NCBI GenBank assembly: GCA_048940445.1
Contig: JBHLON010000030.1
Coordinates: forward strand, 1 to 40,620
Direction: 5' to 3'
Source: Promethearchaeota archaeon
GTDB lineage: Archaea; Asgardarchaeota; Lokiarchaeia; Sigyniarchaeales; SOKP01
DNA length: 40,620 nt
In this document: piece by piece, positions 4,538 to 38,594 of the stretch
Layout: the number at the start of each line of letters is the position of its first letter
Position numbering within the stretch: position 1 is the stretch's first letter
Position numbers and translations under genes: made by a program
The notes under the pieces: generated by a model
Database searches by the model: none
What the model was told of the DNA's origin: nothing
What the model saw: the letters and a program-made list of their open reading frames with translations, nothing else

Positions 4538-6064
4538 ATGGCATTACCTCTACCAGGAACTCCTATAATTCTTGATATTGGATCAGCTTATACAAAGGTA
4601 GGATTTGCAGGAGAGCCTAGTCCTAGGTTTGTATTTCCCACAATAACTGGTACGGAAAAGTATAAAGCTGTTATGGTTGATGTGAGTGCAAGGAATATAT
4701 ATGTGGGGAATGACGCTGCAAAAATGCGTGGAGTTTTAAAAATCAAACGACCAATAGAAAGGGGAGCAATAATGGATTGGAATGATTATTATGAAATTTT
4801 AAATTATTGTTTTTATTCCCTTTTAAGAGTCCCCGATCTTTCTCAATATCCTGTTTTGTATACTGAACCTCCATTTTTACAAAAAGAAACTAAAGAATAC
4901 ATTGCACAAGTATTATTTGAAACTCATCGCGTAGAAAAACTGATTATGGTTCCCACGCCTATCCTGTCAACATTTAGCGTTGGATTAACAACTGGTTTAG
5001 TAATTGAAAGTGGAGATGGTATTACCTGGATTTGCCCAATTATCAATGGTCAAATTATTGACCAAACAGTACAAAAATTGACTTTGGCGGGTACAGATGT
5101 TAATCAGTATCTTAAAAACTTATTAATGAGAGAGGGGATACATATTGAATCTAGTGCAGTGGATGAGATTGTTAAGGATATGAAAGAGCGTAATTGCTAT
5201 TTTGTATTAGATCCTAAAAATCCTCCAAAGAAGGATGAAAAGTTTAGCACTACCATGCCAGATGGTTCCACTTTAAATGTACCACATTACATCTTTCACG
5301 AAGCACCCGAAGTACTATTTCAGCCTAGCCTTATTGGATACCCAATTGATAATATTCCTCAAGCAACTATAAAAAGTTTAGAAGGAATTGATAAGTATTA
5401 TTGGAGTGAACTTTTATCGCATATCGTTTTATCTGGAGGTAATTTATCCTATTCTGGTTTTGAAGAACGATTAGCGTTAGAATTATCAAATTTACTGCCT
5501 CAATTAGGAAAGATTCCTAAACCTAAACAAGAGAAATCATCATCTAAAGGAAAATCCCAACTTAAGTCTCTTGAAGTGGTGAAAAAACAAGAAGATACTT
5601 GTCCTCATTGTGGAACTAGAGTAGATTTATCCGACGGCAAAGAATTATGTCCTTCATGTGGAGGGCGAATTGTGTTACCGGAACTTACAATTAATTTAAA
5701 TGAATCAAATAAACAAGCGCCAATTATTGATGGGAAACTTTTTTGTCCTCATTGTGGAAAAAGTATTCCTGATAGCGCCTCAATTTTTTGCCCATATTGT
5801 GGAAAAAGTGTTGAGACTTCTGAAATTAAAGAGAGTTCTAAGAAAGTAATTGATTCACCTCCTCCTGCCAAAGAATTTGCTGGCTTCTTCGAATCATCTG
5901 ATGAAGTACTAAACTTCTTTGTTCCGGATAATCTTATGTATTCTATCTTTAATGGAGCAGCGATTTTAGGAACGCTCCCTTCATTTCTAAGATTGTTTAT
6001 TACTTACGAACAATTCCTTTCGAATAAGGATCTTTTATATAAAGATATAAGTGAAATTTTCTGA
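4538..6064 (+). CDS. Actin-related protein (Asgard ARP) with double zinc-ribbon insertion
   Basis: Actin motifs DIGSAYTKVGFAGEPSPRFVFP, YVGNDA, PIERG, PVLYTEPP, FET, TTGLVIESGDG, LAG, MPDG, APEVLFQPSLIG, IVLSGG, YSIFNGAAILGTL. About 130-aa insert with CPHC/CPSC/CPHC/CPYC. Confidence 0.93.
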   Translation: MALPLPGTPIILDIGSAYTKVGFAGEPSPRFVFPTITGTEKYKAVMVDVSARNIYVGNDAAKMRGVLKIKRPIERGAIMDWNDYYEILNYCFYSLLRVPDLSQYPVLYTEPPFLQKETKEYIAQVLFETHRVEKLIMVPTPILSTFSVGLTTGLVIESGDGITWICPIINGQIIDQTVQKLTLAGTDVNQYLKNLLMREGIHIESSAVDEIVKDMKERNCYFVLDPKNPPKKDEKFSTTMPDGSTLNVPHYIFHEAPEVLFQPSLIGYPIDNIPQATIKSLEGIDKYYWSELLSHIVLSGGNLSYSGFEERLALELSNLLPQLGKIPKPKQEKSSSKGKSQLKSLEVVKKQEDTCPHCGTRVDLSDGKELCPSCGGRIVLPELTINLNESNKQAPIIDGKLFCPHCGKSIPDSASIFCPYCGKSVETSEIKESSKKVIDSPPPAKEFAGFFESSDEVLNFFVPDNLMYSIFNGAAILGTLPSFLRLFITYEQFLSNKDLLYKDISEIF

Positions 6065-6194: not shown

Positions 6195-7295
6195 TTGAAA
6201 AGTAAATTACGGAGCTTAACAGTAATTGCTATAATTTTTTCCTTATTCTTCGTAATTCTTCCATCAGTTTCAGCGAAAACAAGACAAAGCTATTTAGTGG
6301 ACTTTCTCTATCATAATTATAACGAAAATCGGCGTTTTGGTAATAATTTTGAGGATACTTTCTATGCCTTAGAGATAATCAATCATTACAATTTATACTC
6401 AATCCCAGTCTTATTTGGAACTGAAGTTAAAATTGATAAACCTACATTTATTGATAATTTAAAAACAGATTTAGAGGAACTGTTTGAGGACAATGGTGTT
6501 AACCTTTATGTTTTATTCTATATATTAAGTTGTCTGAACATATTAAATGGGTTAGAATCATTAGATTCGAATATAAGGCATAAAATAAACGAATATGTTA
6601 ATCAAACCGTACAACCATCTGGTGGTTTTTCAATTACAAATTCATCCAAAGTAGCGAATCTCATCTCAACCTTTATGGCTTATAAAGTATATGGTTTGTT
6701 AGGGGAACCTATTATTAATGAAACAACCCATATAAACTGGATACTCTCTTGTAATAATACTGATGGGGGTTATGGAGCTAACCAGACTTTACCCTCAACA
6801 ATTTCAACAACATATTATGCAACTTATCTAATTTATGAGTTCTCTTCAATCCTAGTTAACGAATCTGCCACATTAAACTATCTAACATCATTCTATTGTA
6901 GTGACTCATATGATAAAGTTAATTATGGTGGATATTTCCCTAATCAAGTATCTGATAACACATTATTAAGTAGTACTTATTATTGTGTTAAATCTATTGA
7001 TTTAATCGACAATTCGAAGTTGCATCCAGATTCGACAACAAATTGGATATTAGGCCATCAAAATTTTCAAGATGGTGGATTTATAGAAAACCCCTCCGCT
7101 CAAGGTCAGGAATCTTCCTCGATAGCAGCATCCTATTATGCATTTAAATCATTACAGATCTTAAATGCACTTAGTTATTTAGATCAAGATGTCTTTATGG
7201 TCGAGTTTAACTACACAATTTTAATTATAGTACTCGCTATAATAGGTATAATAGCTGTGGTCATTGCCTTTATTTGGAAAAAAAGAAAAATATAA
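6195..7295 (+). CDS. Prenyltransferase/squalene-cyclase-repeat (alpha/alpha barrel) protein with signal peptide and C-terminal TM anchor
   Basis: Repeats QPSGGFS, CNNTDGGYG, NYGGYF, QNFQDGGF, each followed by an ST(YY)A-type helix. Hydrophobic N-terminus ending VSA|K; C-terminal TM plus WKKRKI. GAGGT 8 nt before the TTG start. Confidence 0.8.
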   Translation: MKSKLRSLTVIAIIFSLFFVILPSVSAKTRQSYLVDFLYHNYNENRRFGNNFEDTFYALEIINHYNLYSIPVLFGTEVKIDKPTFIDNLKTDLEELFEDNGVNLYVLFYILSCLNILNGLESLDSNIRHKINEYVNQTVQPSGGFSITNSSKVANLISTFMAYKVYGLLGEPIINETTHINWILSCNNTDGGYGANQTLPSTISTTYYATYLIYEFSSILVNESATLNYLTSFYCSDSYDKVNYGGYFPNQVSDNTLLSSTYYCVKSIDLIDNSKLHPDSTTNWILGHQNFQDGGFIENPSAQGQESSSIAASYYAFKSLQILNALSYLDQDVFMVEFNYTILIIVLAIIGIIAVVIAFIWKKRKI

Positions 7296-8361: not shown

Positions 8362-8814
8362 ATGGCAATTCTCGAGTGCGGAATAAATCTAGGAATGAGA
8401 AATTTGATTGACATTCGTTATTATTCATCCTCGGACAATTTATTAGATCCAAATCTGAGAGCAGGATTTCTTTCCGCCCTTGAATCTTTTACTAGTGAGG
8501 TTTTTGGAGATGATATCAATGTGGTCTCATTAGCTTCATTCAAACTTGTATGTTACTGTGATTTAATAGCATTGCCTAATGAAGAATCAAATAAACAACC
8601 ACTTTTATCGTATGCAATCATAGAAAAAGAGACAGACACAGAACTTGTAAAGAAATTTTTAAGAAAAATAAATTCCCATTTTTTAAACAGATATTCTCTT
8701 AATGACATTTTTTCAAAGAAAGAAAATTATTTTAAAGGTTTCATCGATCGAATCAATGGAATTCTCGGAGATTTAAGACTAAAAACAGAAGATCGATTTC
8801 GATCAATTTTTTAA
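8362..8814 (+). CDS. Longin-like domain protein
   Basis: 150 aa; DPNLRAGFLSALESF helix, then beta strands, then the LRKINSHFLNRY helix: the pattern typical of Asgard longin/sedlin-like proteins. Confidence 0.65.
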   Translation: MAILECGINLGMRNLIDIRYYSSSDNLLDPNLRAGFLSALESFTSEVFGDDINVVSLASFKLVCYCDLIALPNEESNKQPLLSYAIIEKETDTELVKKFLRKINSHFLNRYSLNDIFSKKENYFKGFIDRINGILGDLRLKTEDRFRSIF

Positions 8815-16855: not shown

Positions 16856-18286
16856 TTAAAATAAGTGTATAAGCGTTTCTAAAGCATCTAATACTTTTTT
16901 TCCATTTTCAGTAATCCTATAATACACATTCTTTCCACTTTTTTCCCTCGAGATTAATTCTTTTTCTTCTAGTTCTTTTAAATGTTGATAAACAGCAGCT
17001 ACACTGATAGATCCTAACATATCTTTGATTTTTGTTCCGTAGATTCCTTTTTTACCAGCCAAAGAAATTTGAGTTAATATTTTTAGTTTCGTACTTAATA
17101 AACTTCCCATCCCCGCGGTTTTAGTCCTGGAGGATAGAGCATCTAATACATAGGGAGCTTTTAAACCACTTCCTGTTATAATACATACTATCTTATCATT
17201 AGGATTGAACATTTCTTGTTGATTTAAGGTCTGTAAAGCCGCTAAAGTTAAAGCTGATGAGGGTTCAGCAAAAATCCCTTCATTTCTAATCAATTCATCG
17301 ATTGAATTTAAAATTAAGTTTTCAGGAATAGCTATTGAAGTACCATTAGTTTCGTTTATGCATCTAATTGCTAAATCTTTAAACATGGGTTTTTTTACAA
17401 GAATTCCCAATGCAATTGACTTTAAGATATCTCCTTCTTCGCTTTCTTTATTTTTTCGTTGAAAAAAACTGTCTACTATAGGAGAAGATATTTGAGATTG
17501 TACTCCTATTAACTTTGGGACCTCCTGGATCATATTTGCTTTCTTAAGCTCATTATAACCTTTCCATAAGCTCACTAATAGCTCTCCGCTTCCCATAGGA
17601 ACTATAATCCAGTCTGGGACTCCTAATTGATGATAAAGCTCAAATGCAATAGTTTTTTGAGCTTCGATTGTAAGAGGATTATACTCACTTGTACATTGAT
17701 AGTAATCATTATATTTTTTATCTAAAGCTAATCTGATCGCATCATCAATAAGATCACCACTAACAATAATTTCTGAATTATATGCAATCATCTGAGCCTT
17801 TTTTCCAATATCGATTTCATGTGGAATAATATTTACACAATTAATATCTTCTAATGAGGCATAAGCTGCAATCGAAGCGCCTTGATTTCCATTAGATGCA
17901 CATACTACTTTATTATATTCCCAACTTCTTGCATGCGATATTAACAATGCAGCGGATCTATCTTTAAATGAGTTTGTAGGATTTTGAGTTTCATCCTTGA
18001 AAAATAAATTTTTAAGACTCAAAATTTGCCCAATTCGTTCGGATTCTTTGCATTGAGTCCCTCCCTCTCTTTTATCTAAGGTAACTATAAATTCTTTATC
18101 TATCTGTGGAAAAGCGAAATAGAAGTCCCAAAAAGTATTCAAGGGCTTATTAAAATTTTCCTTGTAATCCTGAATTTTTGGTATGAACCATAATAAACTT
18201 CCACATTGGGGACATTTATGAATAATTGTATTAAGTTCATATTTCTTATCACAATTACTACAAGTTAAAATTATAGGTTTCCGAAT
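16856..18286 (-). CDS. Threonine synthase-like PLP enzyme (fold type II) with N-terminal Zn ribbon, fused to a C-terminal winged-helix domain
   Basis: NPTNSFKDR (PLP Lys), ASNGNQGAS, EAQKT, VPMGSG, EPSSA, ITGSGLK; wHTH SVAAVYQHLKELEEKELI...YYRITENG. The frame extends 48 codons upstream of the track start through CSNC...CPQCG to ATT 18286. Confidence 0.85.
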   Translation of the reverse strand: MRKPIILTCSNCDKKYELNTIIHKCPQCGSLLWFIPKIQDYKENFNKPLNTFWDFYFAFPQIDKEFIVTLDKREGGTQCKESERIGQILSLKNLFFKDETQNPTNSFKDRSAALLISHARSWEYNKVVCASNGNQGASIAAYASLEDINCVNIIPHEIDIGKKAQMIAYNSEIIVSGDLIDDAIRLALDKKYNDYYQCTSEYNPLTIEAQKTIAFELYHQLGVPDWIIVPMGSGELLVSLWKGYNELKKANMIQEVPKLIGVQSQISSPIVDSFFQRKNKESEEGDILKSIALGILVKKPMFKDLAIRCINETNGTSIAIPENLILNSIDELIRNEGIFAEPSSALTLAALQTLNQQEMFNPNDKIVCIITGSGLKAPYVLDALSSRTKTAGMGSLLSTKLKILTQISLAGKKGIYGTKIKDMLGSISVAAVYQHLKELEEKELISREKSGKNVYYRITENGKKVLDALETLIHLF

Positions 18287-24014: not shown

Positions 24015-25496
24015 ATGACGGATGAACTAAGGGAAGAAGACAGGGAAAGTAAGACAGAAGGTAAATCAGAAAAAGATGATGATCGGGTAGACAAAGAATT
24101 CCTAAGTAAAGCGAAAGAATCAAGAGATTTAATTGATAAAAAGTTAAGGAGTTTTGAAAATAGTATTGTAGATATTTCAGATACCATTAAAAATGGTGAA
24201 ACTGAAGATGAACAAAAGGAAAAAGAAGTTCCTCTAAGTGAAGAATTAACAGAAGAAATAAAAAAAGAACAAGAAAAACTGGAAAGTATAAAGAAAAAAG
24301 TTGATGATAAGGAGGAATATTTGGCAGCTCTCGAGGAAACTATAAAAGATCTGACAGAAAAATACAATCGAAAAAATGAAGAAATGCAAAATCTGGAAGA
24401 AAGATTAAAGATTACTCAGGAAAGTAAAGAAACTCTTGAAGAAGAATACAAAGAATTGATAAAGAACAATGAGCAATTAGTTAAAACCTATGAAACTCGA
24501 CAGGTTGACCTAATCGTATTAACCGATAGTGTTAAAGAAAAAGTTGCCAATCAAGATGAGCTGAGAACGAAAATTGGTAAAATTAATCAGGAAATTCAAG
24601 AAAAAGAAGGAATTATTGAAAAACAAAAAGAAGAGGCAGAAGCCTTAGACAAGAAAATTAAAAGTCTAACTGCAGAAAATGAAACATTAAAGGTCTCAAT
24701 TGGTAAAAATAGATTTGAATTAGACCACACTAATAAAGAAATTGAAGCAAAAGAAGAGGAAAAGAAACTTTTATCAGAACAACTCGAGAAGAAAGAGCAA
24801 AAGATAAAAACTATTGAACAACAAATCGAAGATTATAAACAAGGATTTCCAGAAATGGAGAAACAAAGAGAAACTTATGAAGAACTGTTAGCTAAATATA
24901 AAGTTCAGTTAACTGAAAAACAACAACAATTAATTGATACTGAGTCTAAAATTCAAAGTTTAACTGAATCCTTGGCTTCTTTTGATGAACAGATCTCTAA
25001 AAAAGAAAATTTAATGGAAGCTAATCAAAAAAGGTTAGAAGACTTAAAAACGGATATAGACAACACCAATATGGAATATATTGAACGAGAAGAAAGATTA
25101 AACTCACTTACAGAAAAGTTAGAATTTATGCAGACGGAACATGATAAATTAAGCAAAGCAAAAGAAGTAATAGAAAAAAGCACAAATGAATCTAAAGCAC
25201 TGCTTCAAAAATTAAAAATTGAATTAGACAATCAAGAAGAAGAAATAAGAGATAAAGAAAGTAGGATTCATAGATTAGAGACTCTTTCATTTATATATAG
25301 ACTCTCGAAATTCTTTGGAGGAATATTAATTGGAGTAGGAATATTTTTTATTATTCTTGTGATAGGTGATGTTTTCGACTTTATCAATTTTGGAGATCTT
25401 ATAAACCTTGGCTCTTTAAGCGTAGTGGGTTTATTATTGTTAATAAGCGCTTTATTTTTAATTATTTCTGGAATCTTTCATTTAGAAAAATCCTAG
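24015..25496 (+). CDS. Long coiled-coil protein with C-terminal two-TM anchor
   Basis: About 400 aa of E/K/Q-rich heptads nearly free of Pro/Gly, then two hydrophobic segments. Confidence 0.85.
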   Translation: MTDELREEDRESKTEGKSEKDDDRVDKEFLSKAKESRDLIDKKLRSFENSIVDISDTIKNGETEDEQKEKEVPLSEELTEEIKKEQEKLESIKKKVDDKEEYLAALEETIKDLTEKYNRKNEEMQNLEERLKITQESKETLEEEYKELIKNNEQLVKTYETRQVDLIVLTDSVKEKVANQDELRTKIGKINQEIQEKEGIIEKQKEEAEALDKKIKSLTAENETLKVSIGKNRFELDHTNKEIEAKEEEKKLLSEQLEKKEQKIKTIEQQIEDYKQGFPEMEKQRETYEELLAKYKVQLTEKQQQLIDTESKIQSLTESLASFDEQISKKENLMEANQKRLEDLKTDIDNTNMEYIEREERLNSLTEKLEFMQTEHDKLSKAKEVIEKSTNESKALLQKLKIELDNQEEEIRDKESRIHRLETLSFIYRLSKFFGGILIGVGIFFIILVIGDVFDFINFGDLINLGSLSVVGLLLLISALFLIISGIFHLEKS

Positions 25497-36932: not shown

Positions 36933-38594
36933 ATGGTCTTAATAGTAATTCTATTTATTGGCATCTTGTTGATCTCCTTTATCTACATAAAATCTAATCG
37001 AAAACCAACAAAAGAATTTAAGGTCAACGAATATATAAAACTAAAATTGGAAAATGGTAGGACTAATATTTATGTAAAGAATCGAGTATTTAGGCAATGC
37101 ATGTATCTCCTTTTAAATATTCCTATTAAAAAAATCCATCAATATGATCATATTGACTCGATTGATGAAGCAGCGGAAAATTTGGATCGTTCAATGGAGA
37201 GAGGTTTTAGAGCAGGAAGGCAAATAACTCCTGAGGAAGAATTCATAGGTCATTGTTCCAATATCCAAGCTTGGGCGGACAACGATTATGATACACGAAT
37301 ATTGCACAGGAATCTAGCATTTCCTCTACTAAAAAGACTAACAGATATAGGAGACCCGCTTGCAATGAAAAAATTTAAAGAAGAGATTGCATTAAGATAT
37401 GCAAGTGGTTATCCAACAGTAATGCAATATTTAACTCAACGAGGTTACTTAAATTATTTAACTAGCGAAGAGTTTGAAAGTATTATTGATGATATAGAAT
37501 CTCCTTTAATTACAGATATTACCGAAAAAATTAAATCATCTTTAAATCGTTTAGAAGATGGAAACGCATTAAGAAGAATTTATTATTCAATAGGAGGTCT
37601 ATTAAGATCATTCAAATTTAAGCATAGTTATTTATTACTTACTCGAGTCTTAAAGGAATTACCAGAAGATACTAGACAAAGATTTATTGAGGTAATATGT
37701 TCTATCTTTCTATCTAGAAAGAGTTTCCCTATGCTTGCGTTTGTGAAATTTGTTAAAGATCATTATGATAATATCAAATTGAATTATATCAGTTATGAAG
37801 ATAAGTTTATAGGGCTATTAGCTGGGAATTCTTTAAATTTAAAACAAAAAAATATAACAGAATTCAATATGGTAGAAGGTGTAAGAGACTTTGCAACCCA
37901 AATAGAAAAGATTGATTTGAGTAAAAATTTGTTATCAAAAATCCAAGGTTTTGAAGATTTTCTAAATTTAAAAATATTAAAACTCAATTTTAACAATATA
38001 TCCGATATTAATGGTTTAGACCTATGCCCTAAACTTAGAATTTTAGAGCTTAATAATAATCGAATTTCAAATTTAAATAGTTTGAAAAAGTTAAAAAGTT
38101 TAGAAAAGTTGTCCCTTAGAAACAATTTAATTGATATGATTTGTGATTTAAGTGAATTTAATCGCTTAGAGTTTTTAGATCTTTCAGGAAATATTAGAAT
38201 TGTCGAGATACCAGATTCACTTAAAGATCTCCCATCATTGAAAGTATTAAAATTATCCGGATGTCCGCTAAGAAATTATTCAGATTCCATATCAAAATTT
38301 TTTTGGATGGAAGCTAATTATAGCTACTATTCAAATTATTCTTCCAATGATGTCCTTCAATATCAGCATGTTTTTAATAAAAATGCTCTTTATGGGAATA
38401 GACTTTATAAGCATTTCGTTAAATGGTTATTAAATATCAGAAAGATTAAAGCAGAATTAAGATGTGGATATAAAGTGATTAATCAATATGAGAATGAATC
38501 AAATAAAAGTGCTATATGGAGTGGTAAGGCTACAAAAGCATTTATAAAGTGGCTAGATGATAAAAAGCAAACCAGAATTTTTGAATTCTTATGA
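36933..38594 (+). CDS. Membrane-anchored leucine-rich-repeat protein with Loki-type N-terminal domain and C-terminal PIP-like motif
   Basis: N-terminal TM; FKVNEYIKLKLE...QCMYLL...EEEFIGHCSNIQAW...RILH.NLAFPLLK domain; about 7 SDS22-like LxxLxLxxNxI repeats; ends KKQTRIFEFL. Confidence 0.88.
   Translation: MVLIVILFIGILLISFIYIKSNRKPTKEFKVNEYIKLKLENGRTNIYVKNRVFRQCMYLLLNIPIKKIHQYDHIDSIDEAAENLDRSMERGFRAGRQITPEEEFIGHCSNIQAWADNDYDTRILHRNLAFPLLKRLTDIGDPLAMKKFKEEIALRYASGYPTVMQYLTQRGYLNYLTSEEFESIIDDIESPLITDITEKIKSSLNRLEDGNALRRIYYSIGGLLRSFKFKHSYLLLTRVLKELPEDTRQRFIEVICSIFLSRKSFPMLAFVKFVKDHYDNIKLNYISYEDKFIGLLAGNSLNLKQKNITEFNMVEGVRDFATQIEKIDLSKNLLSKIQGFEDFLNLKILKLNFNNISDINGLDLCPKLRILELNNNRISNLNSLKKLKSLEKLSLRNNLIDMICDLSEFNRLEFLDLSGNIRIVEIPDSLKDLPSLKVLKLSGCPLRNYSDSISKFFWMEANYSYYSNYSSNDVLQYQHVFNKNALYGNRLYKHFVKWLLNIRKIKAELRCGYKVINQYENESNKSAIWSGKATKAFIKWLDDKKQTRIFEFL

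Follow-up and report, generated by a model that had tools for sequence, protein, structure and literature searches.

The window, as we call the whole 40,620-nucleotide stretch of DNA that was analyzed, encodes a real and conserved actin relative of Loki-type Asgard archaea, here named the zinc-ribbon actin-related protein (ARP). Its residues for ATP hydrolysis are replaced, its pointed filament face is largely kept, its barbed face has lost most polar contacts, and an insert with two zinc ribbons stands in subdomain 3. The best reading of these features, still a tentative one that stops somewhat short of being probable, is a non-hydrolyzing cap or tether on the barbed ends of Lokiactin filaments.

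A conserved gene with a complete actin fold

The gene was found as a single open frame in an ORF analysis of the window.

4538..6064 (+): gene of the zinc-ribbon actin-related protein, 508 aa, orthologue of Ca. L. ossiferum UYP44711.1
5909..6061 (+): C-terminal segment completing the actin fold (actin ~327-375), with the cleft residues I345, L346, L349 and F352 kept (solved-actin alignment, model)

The Pfam Actin family (PF00022) matched residues 9-326 (E 4e-66; 223.7 bits versus a cut-off of 27). In a HMMER comparison with solved actins, the Asgard HC1 actin 9wc4 came out as the best relative (E 2.4e-70), and residues 460-494 aligned to it as a second stretch. A structure model built from a diverse alignment reached a pLDDT of 81.0 and corrected residues 16-79, where a model based solely on close homologues had been poor (pLDDT 66.6). 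The model fitted actin 8gsw with a TM score of 0.92 (by target) and an rmsd of 2.2. It had a complete actin core, zinc ribbons with a pLDDT of ~70-75, and linkers below 50. By Pfam and the model, all four actin subdomains are present, as expected of an actin family member.

The actin core has a dN/dS of 0.03-0.07 (versus three relatives) and is under strong purifying selection. Both a pseudogene and an assembly chimera were ruled out by the open frame, a dN/dS of 0.06-0.09, and an architecture common to more than 100 genomes. The first-pass annotation had also claimed a retained C-terminal Phe, but Phe508 lies 2-3 residues past the register of F375 and is replaced by Leu in 65 of 120 homologues (Phe in 52), and this claim was dropped.

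Replacement of the ATPase residues

The following active-site features were identified.

4574..4597 (+): phosphate-1 loop, residues 13-20, with the equivalents of D11, G13, S14 and K18 kept and G15 replaced by A (alignments)
4760..4762 (+): R75, replacing actin H73 of the sensor loop (Arg in 53/53 orthologues)
4955..4957 (+): T140, replacing the catalytic Q137 (alignments)
5006..5029 (+): phosphate-2 loop, residues 157-164, with D154 replaced by E, D157 kept and H161 replaced by W (alignments)
5435..5458 (+): adenine-binding loop, residues 300-307, with the equivalents of G301, G302 and Y306 kept (alignments)

The register was taken from HMMER alignments to solved actins and from an alignment to the Lokiactin of the source genome. 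These placed D13, S16, A17, K20, D160 and Y305 at actin D11, S14, G15, K18, D157 and Y306, respectively, and R75, T140, E157 and W164 at H73, Q137, D154 and H161. The same four replacements had been read by eye in the first-pass annotation, together with the phosphate-1 loop and the adenine loop (GGNLSYSG), and all of these readings were borne out. It had granted that a proper alignment might recover equivalents of Q137 and H161; T140 and W164 were found there instead. The replacements are traits of the clade. Among 53 orthologues, which are related and not independent sequences, position 137 is Thr in 30, Ser in 22, Ala in one and Gln in none, position 73 is Arg in all 53, position 154 is Glu in 51 and Asp in two, and position 161 is Trp in 38 and His in only three. 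In contrast, H73, Q137, D154 and H161 are kept in all of 21 Lokiactins of other lineages.

Equivalents of the nucleotide-binding residues D11, G13, S14, K18, G156, D157, G158, K213, E214, G302 and Y306 are present in the ARP, and 12 of its 19 phosphate, ribose and adenine ligands are identical to those of Lokiactin (17 are similar). The cultured family, that of L. ossiferum, has Glu or Gln at position 14 and Thr or Cys at position 157.

Q137 and H161 function in hydrolysis in F-actin (bioRxiv 10.1101/309534). Yeast Arp4, with Thr (T142) at the Q137 position, binds ATP without measurable ATPase activity, and Arp8 has Arg at the H73 position (PMC3510490). The sequence and these precedents support the earlier proposal of a hydrolysis-poor ARP and suggest that the protein likely binds ATP without efficient hydrolysis. 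Loss of the ATPase residues alone is ordinary for ARPs and not distinctive, because the other two ARPs of the source genome, on contigs C10 and C119, also lack Q137 and H161 and because Arp4 has Thr without ATPase activity.

Asymmetry of the filament faces

Contact residues of the two filament faces were taken from a cryo-EM study of F-actin (bioRxiv 10.1101/309534).

4655..4693 (+): D-loop, residues 40-52, with the equivalents of K39, V43 and M44 kept (pointed face; alignments; pLDDT <50 at 45-50)
5045..5053 (+): tip of the W-loop, with N170 for E167 and Q172 for Y169 (barbed-face contacts lost; alignments)
5258..5266 (+): PDG loop of subdomain 4, with the D244 equivalent kept (pointed face; 53/53 orthologues)
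5390..5404 (+): subdomain-3 loop 285-289, with D286 kept, D288 replaced by Y and R290 by W (barbed-face contacts lost; alignments)

The window ARP keeps 8 of 10 pointed-face contacts and 1 of 5 polar contacts of the barbed face, and thus does not have both faces intact as a Lokiactin does. The 21 Lokiactins of other lineages keep 9-10 of 10 and 4-5 of 5, respectively, and have no face bias. In the 53 orthologues, again as related sequences, K39, R62, V64 and D244 of the pointed face are found in 53/53 and M44 in 51/53. On the barbed face, an aromatic residue at 169 is found in 0/53, D288 in 1/53, R290 in 1/53 (Trp in 45/53) and E167 in 4/53. With a wider residue list, mean BLOSUM similarity to Lokiactin was 3.03 for the pointed face and 1.35 for the barbed face, compared to 1.98 overall; the difference between faces had a permutation p of 0.017 with residues as units.

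The D-loop that the first-pass annotation described as retained is present and Lokiactin-like, although two residues shorter than that of Lokiactin and shorter again in the cultured family. Its low pLDDT at 45-50 is expected of a flexible loop. E205 and P38 of the pointed face are lost, and lateral filament contacts are poorly kept. Loss of the barbed face is only partial, since it retains D286 and the hydrophobic pocket for M44 (142, 143, 148 and 165). The subdomain-3 patch is less conserved within the family than the core is (0.70 versus 0.82), which argues against a rewired self-interface. One face kept and the other lost is the pattern of Arp11, here with the opposite polarity.

The zinc-ribbon insert

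The length of 508 aa is explained by an insert that carries two ribbons.

5516..5908 (+): 131-aa insert in subdomain 3 at actin residue ~326 (residues 327-457), made of a Lys-rich linker, ribbon 1, a linker, ribbon 2 and a linker (Pfam, alignment, model)
5600..5659 (+): zinc ribbon 1, C355, C358, C371 and C374 (four Cys in 120/120 homologues; dN/dS 0.03-0.07)
5744..5800 (+): zinc ribbon 2, C403, C406, C418 and C421 (four Cys in 120/120 homologues; dN/dS 0.14-0.29)

Each module has the two CxxC knuckles of a C4 zinc ribbon, the eight Cys are invariant in 120 homologues, and the zinc-ribbon families PF13248 and PF12773 matched ~354-430 above their cut-offs. The ribbons are predicted to bind zinc. 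Ribbon 2 and the linkers together have a dN/dS of 0.09-0.29. By alignment and model, the insert exits the actin fold beside the lost subdomain-3 barbed patch, on low-confidence linkers. An ESM Atlas search with the insert gave no usable match. A similar ribbon motif occurs in 34 ORFs of the source genome, and the ribbons look like a general Lokiarchaeial module.

With one exception, every orthologue examined has either a single ribbon or two. The exceptional one, a fast-evolving extra copy in genome G249 (L068:2976-4133 (-), G249:C37), comes from the zinc-ribbon clade on a long branch and has lost both the insert and some of the pointed face. One ribbon is found in the basal family and L. ossiferum (insert of 97-119 aa) and two elsewhere (113-172 aa). 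In two homologues (L080 and L097), two additional CxxC lie elsewhere than in the insert.

Distribution and identity

Among 154 genomes from one Lokiarchaeia order, a profile search gave full-length matches in 143 and fragments in three more (146/154). The seven genomes from other orders of the class gave only Lokiactin-level matches to this profile, and a sample of ~157 genomes from elsewhere in the phylum showed no zinc-ribbon ARP. Named homologues came from Lokiarchaeia-type metagenome bins. Five genomes without the gene were checked, and in these the downstream neighbor was likewise missing or at a contig end, with no clear true loss. Since no order but this one yielded the gene in these searches, parallel evolution is suggested, and an ancestor of the eukaryotic Arps is unlikely.

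A phylogeny with Lokiactins had been proposed in the first-pass annotation. In a quick tree, built with the insert removed and without eukaryotic Arps, the orthologues formed one clade of their own (SH-aLRT 98) apart from the Lokiactins, and branching broadly followed families. The source genome has four actin homologues: a Lokiactin (C72), the ARPs on C10 and C119, and the zinc-ribbon ARP. Lokiactin (C72; HC1 actin 9wc4) is the closest sequence relative of the last, at 39% over the core, and shares its D-loop pattern and nucleotide ligands. It differs in keeping H73, Q137, D154, H161 and both faces, in having no insert, and in its separate clade.

By tree, synteny and sequence, the zinc-ribbon ARP is the orthologue of UYP44711.1. 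The two share a clade and neighbors, and the matching gene in a 6.04-Mb closed genome contains both published qPCR primers of UYP44711.1. The differences are that UYP44711.1 is 38% identical to the window ARP, has one ribbon (two CxxC) rather than two and a shorter D-loop, and carries Ser at 137, a kept H161, Gln for S14 and Cys for D157. On these grounds, the zinc-ribbon ARP belongs to the actin family and, within it, to the UYP44711.1 group, and is not a Lokiactin. Three L. ossiferum ARPs were previously placed in a tree, where UYP44711.1 is a branch, transcribed less than Lokiactin; zinc, the active site and the faces are not mentioned (Rodrigues-Oliveira et al., PMC9834061, Fig. 5d,e). A literature search that reached few subscription papers found none describing the insert or the face asymmetry.

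The basal family f29 (L103, L104, L105 and L108) has further, very divergent actin homologues; that of L103 has Q137 kept and Trp at 161.

Protein levels and gene neighborhood

In the portion of the L. ossiferum tables of Radler et al. covered here (10.1101/2025.11.30.690169), loci 01003 and 01004 are listed at 31.93 and 41.88 kDa. The two genes downstream of the ARP encode proteins of 31.95 and 41.9 kDa, which match these loci. Gene order and accession offsets point to locus 01005 as the ARP orthologue, which is expressed as protein in L. ossiferum. In the same portion, the mean log2 level of locus 01005 is 16.12 compared to 21.69 for Lokiactin (~47-fold lower) and 17.3-20.1 for the gelsolins (10.1101/2025.11.30.690169). 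A level ~1/47 that of Lokiactin suits an end-binder.

A crosslinked Lokiactin pull-down in L. ossiferum enriched profilin, five gelsolins and an ARF GTPase, with no ARP named (PMC13716822). The orthologue was not among the table rows covered, which extend down to a log2 ratio of -1.06 with 841 rows beyond. This is weak evidence against Lokiactin as the partner, because the orthologue is scarcer (16.1) than the enriched gelsolins (17.3-20.1) and because an end-binder is present once per filament.

Upstream of the ARP lie a ModE-like regulator and a CBS protein; downstream, in order, are a surface protein with a toroid, FolD, a 150-aa protein and a DRG-type GTPase.

6195..7295 (+): surface protein that has an alpha-alpha toroid of prenyltransferase type and, at its C terminus, a hydrophobic anchor (ARP neighbor across the order)

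The pair of ARP and surface protein is kept from the family of the source genome to the basal family, except in G307. Lokiactin and the C10 ARP had no neighbors kept across families in the short flanks examined. The ARP may be tethered to the surface (membrane) protein. A stoichiometric operon of the two was ruled out, as their protein levels are ~40-fold apart in L. ossiferum and the genes are unlinked in G307; this level difference makes a fixed complex unlikely. In the portion of the tables covered, the L. ossiferum orthologue of the surface protein has a log2 level of 21.46 versus 21.69 for Lokiactin and a pull-down ratio of -0.02, which is not an enrichment (10.1101/2025.11.30.690169). 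No cytoskeletal gene was found near the ARP in the window annotation or the neighborhood comparison.

A predicted barbed-end cap and its alternatives

A barbed-end cap would work as follows. A low-abundance actin paralogue would bind nucleotide and hydrolyze it poorly, and would join the Lokiactin barbed end via its intact pointed face (D-loop, R62 and D244). Growth would then stop, as the ARP's own barbed face lacks residues that receive the next subunit and bears the tethered zinc-ribbon insert, and through the ribbons this end would be connected with some other protein or structure. We infer ATP binding without hydrolysis, Lokiactin as the partner, capping, zinc binding and any tethering role. 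Gelsolins already supply barbed-end capping, and this counts against a cap, as do the lack of a nearby cytoskeletal gene, the shorter D-loop of the cultured family and the partly kept barbed face. To our knowledge, no actin-fold barbed-end capper is known in eukaryotes. A capper or adaptor for Lokiactin had been among the roles first proposed; the barbed-end capper or adaptor fits, while Lokiactin would be its presumed partner, the orthologue showing no enrichment in the pull-down rows covered (PMC13716822). By analogy, Arp11 of dynactin is an actin-fold protein at a filament end, wrapped by p62, which has zinc ribbons (PMC8047447). Arp11 is at the pointed end, whereas the zinc-ribbon ARP is predicted at the barbed end with ribbons in the same chain, so this would be an analogy only.

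Another explanation, which we consider unlikely, is a monomeric scaffold like Arp4, working off the filament and using ATP as a structural element, with the ribbons and the hydrophobic cleft binding some other partner. The cleft residues are 92% conserved within the family, similar ribbons occur in those 34 ORFs, and the orthologue was not enriched with Lokiactin in the pull-down rows covered. Thr at 137 as in Arp4/BAF53 and Arg at 73 as in Arp8 also point this way, both being non-polymerizing ARPs with insertions in the fold and a replaced H161 (PMC3510490). A scaffold, however, leaves unexplained the Lokiactin-like D-loop, which is non-structural, and the order-wide R62, V64 and D244 at 34-42% overall identity. 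Arp4/BAF53 and Arp8 are nuclear chromatin-remodeller subunits, whereas the zinc-ribbon ARP keeps an actin-like pointed face and has zinc ribbons as its insert; the likeness is one of the active site.

The ARP on C10 (UYP44126-type; L002:1483-2595 (-), the same as G000:C10:60018-61130) has lost Q137 and H161, and the same type was found as L074, L076, L077, L101 and L102. It keeps 5/5 of the barbed polar contacts and has lost M44 and R62, the mirror image of the zinc-ribbon ARP, which makes it a candidate for capping the pointed end or for nucleation. Families f1 and f2 have this type, and f28 has a fragment of it. A closed heterodimer of the two, forming a non-polymerizing module, would account for this mirror asymmetry and for the presence of both ARPs in most f1 and f2 genomes. 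It is nonetheless doubtful: the two genes are unlinked, and no C10-type gene was found in the four basal f29 genomes with a zinc-ribbon ARP (63-88% complete), which points to Lokiactin, more than to the C10-type ARP, as the original partner. In the single-contig genome G307, Lokiactin was the only other actin found beside the zinc-ribbon ARP.

A slow homopolymer appears improbable, as does a subunit that co-polymerizes occasionally; in either case the interface and the active site would both be rewired (E157 and R75 for Q137 and H73), and the ribbons would decorate the filament. E154 and R73 are nearly invariant, W290 is found in 45/53, the M44 pocket is kept, and actin Q137A still polymerizes, all of which would suit such a subunit. 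Its low abundance and the free variation of barbed positions 169, 287, 288 and 291 within the family do not.

An Arp2/3-like nucleator templating barbed-end growth, the other role first proposed, is very improbable despite the kept actin fold and hydrophobic cleft, since the surface needed for growth of a daughter filament (E167, Y169, D288 and R290) is the one lost and the C10-type ARP fits the role better. Arp2/3 presents barbed faces for growth. What the zinc-ribbon ARP shares with that complex is the proposed regulation of the main actin by a divergent paralogue; it differs in lacking the barbed-face contacts.

Returning to the barbed-end cap, a broader and more speculative proposal is that two one-faced actin paralogues arose in the Lokiarchaeia of this order, separately from eukaryotes, and bracket Lokiactin filaments, with the zinc-ribbon ARP capping and tethering the barbed end and the ARP of UYP44126 type acting as a pointed-end cap or nucleator. 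We would not call this proposal probable, but it is conceivable. Two Asgard ARPs now receive opposite residue-level predictions (a barbed-end block versus a pointed-end cap or nucleator). If these are true, archaea would have come to control filament ends through actin paralogues on a path separate from that of Arp2/3 and dynactin.

Other observations

The most divergent ARP (UYP47647-type; L004, the same as G000:C119:9298-13835) lies between genes for 254-aa and 865-aa proteins, both kept beside it in f1, f2 and f28. No Pfam family was matched by the 254-aa protein or by the first 493 aa of the 865-aa protein. This neighborhood looks like a conserved operon with a role unassigned by Pfam.

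Four further genes of the window were noted. The 150-aa gene (8362-8814, +) has no confident Pfam family and appears longin-like by eye; within the family it is 65-76% conserved and lies next to FolD and the DRG-type GTPase. At 16856-18142 (-), a PLP-dependent enzyme of threonine-synthase type is fused to a C-terminal winged helix. A 493-aa coiled-coil protein with a weak ATG16 match is encoded at 24015-25496 (+), and a 553-aa leucine-rich-repeat protein at 36933-38594 (+).
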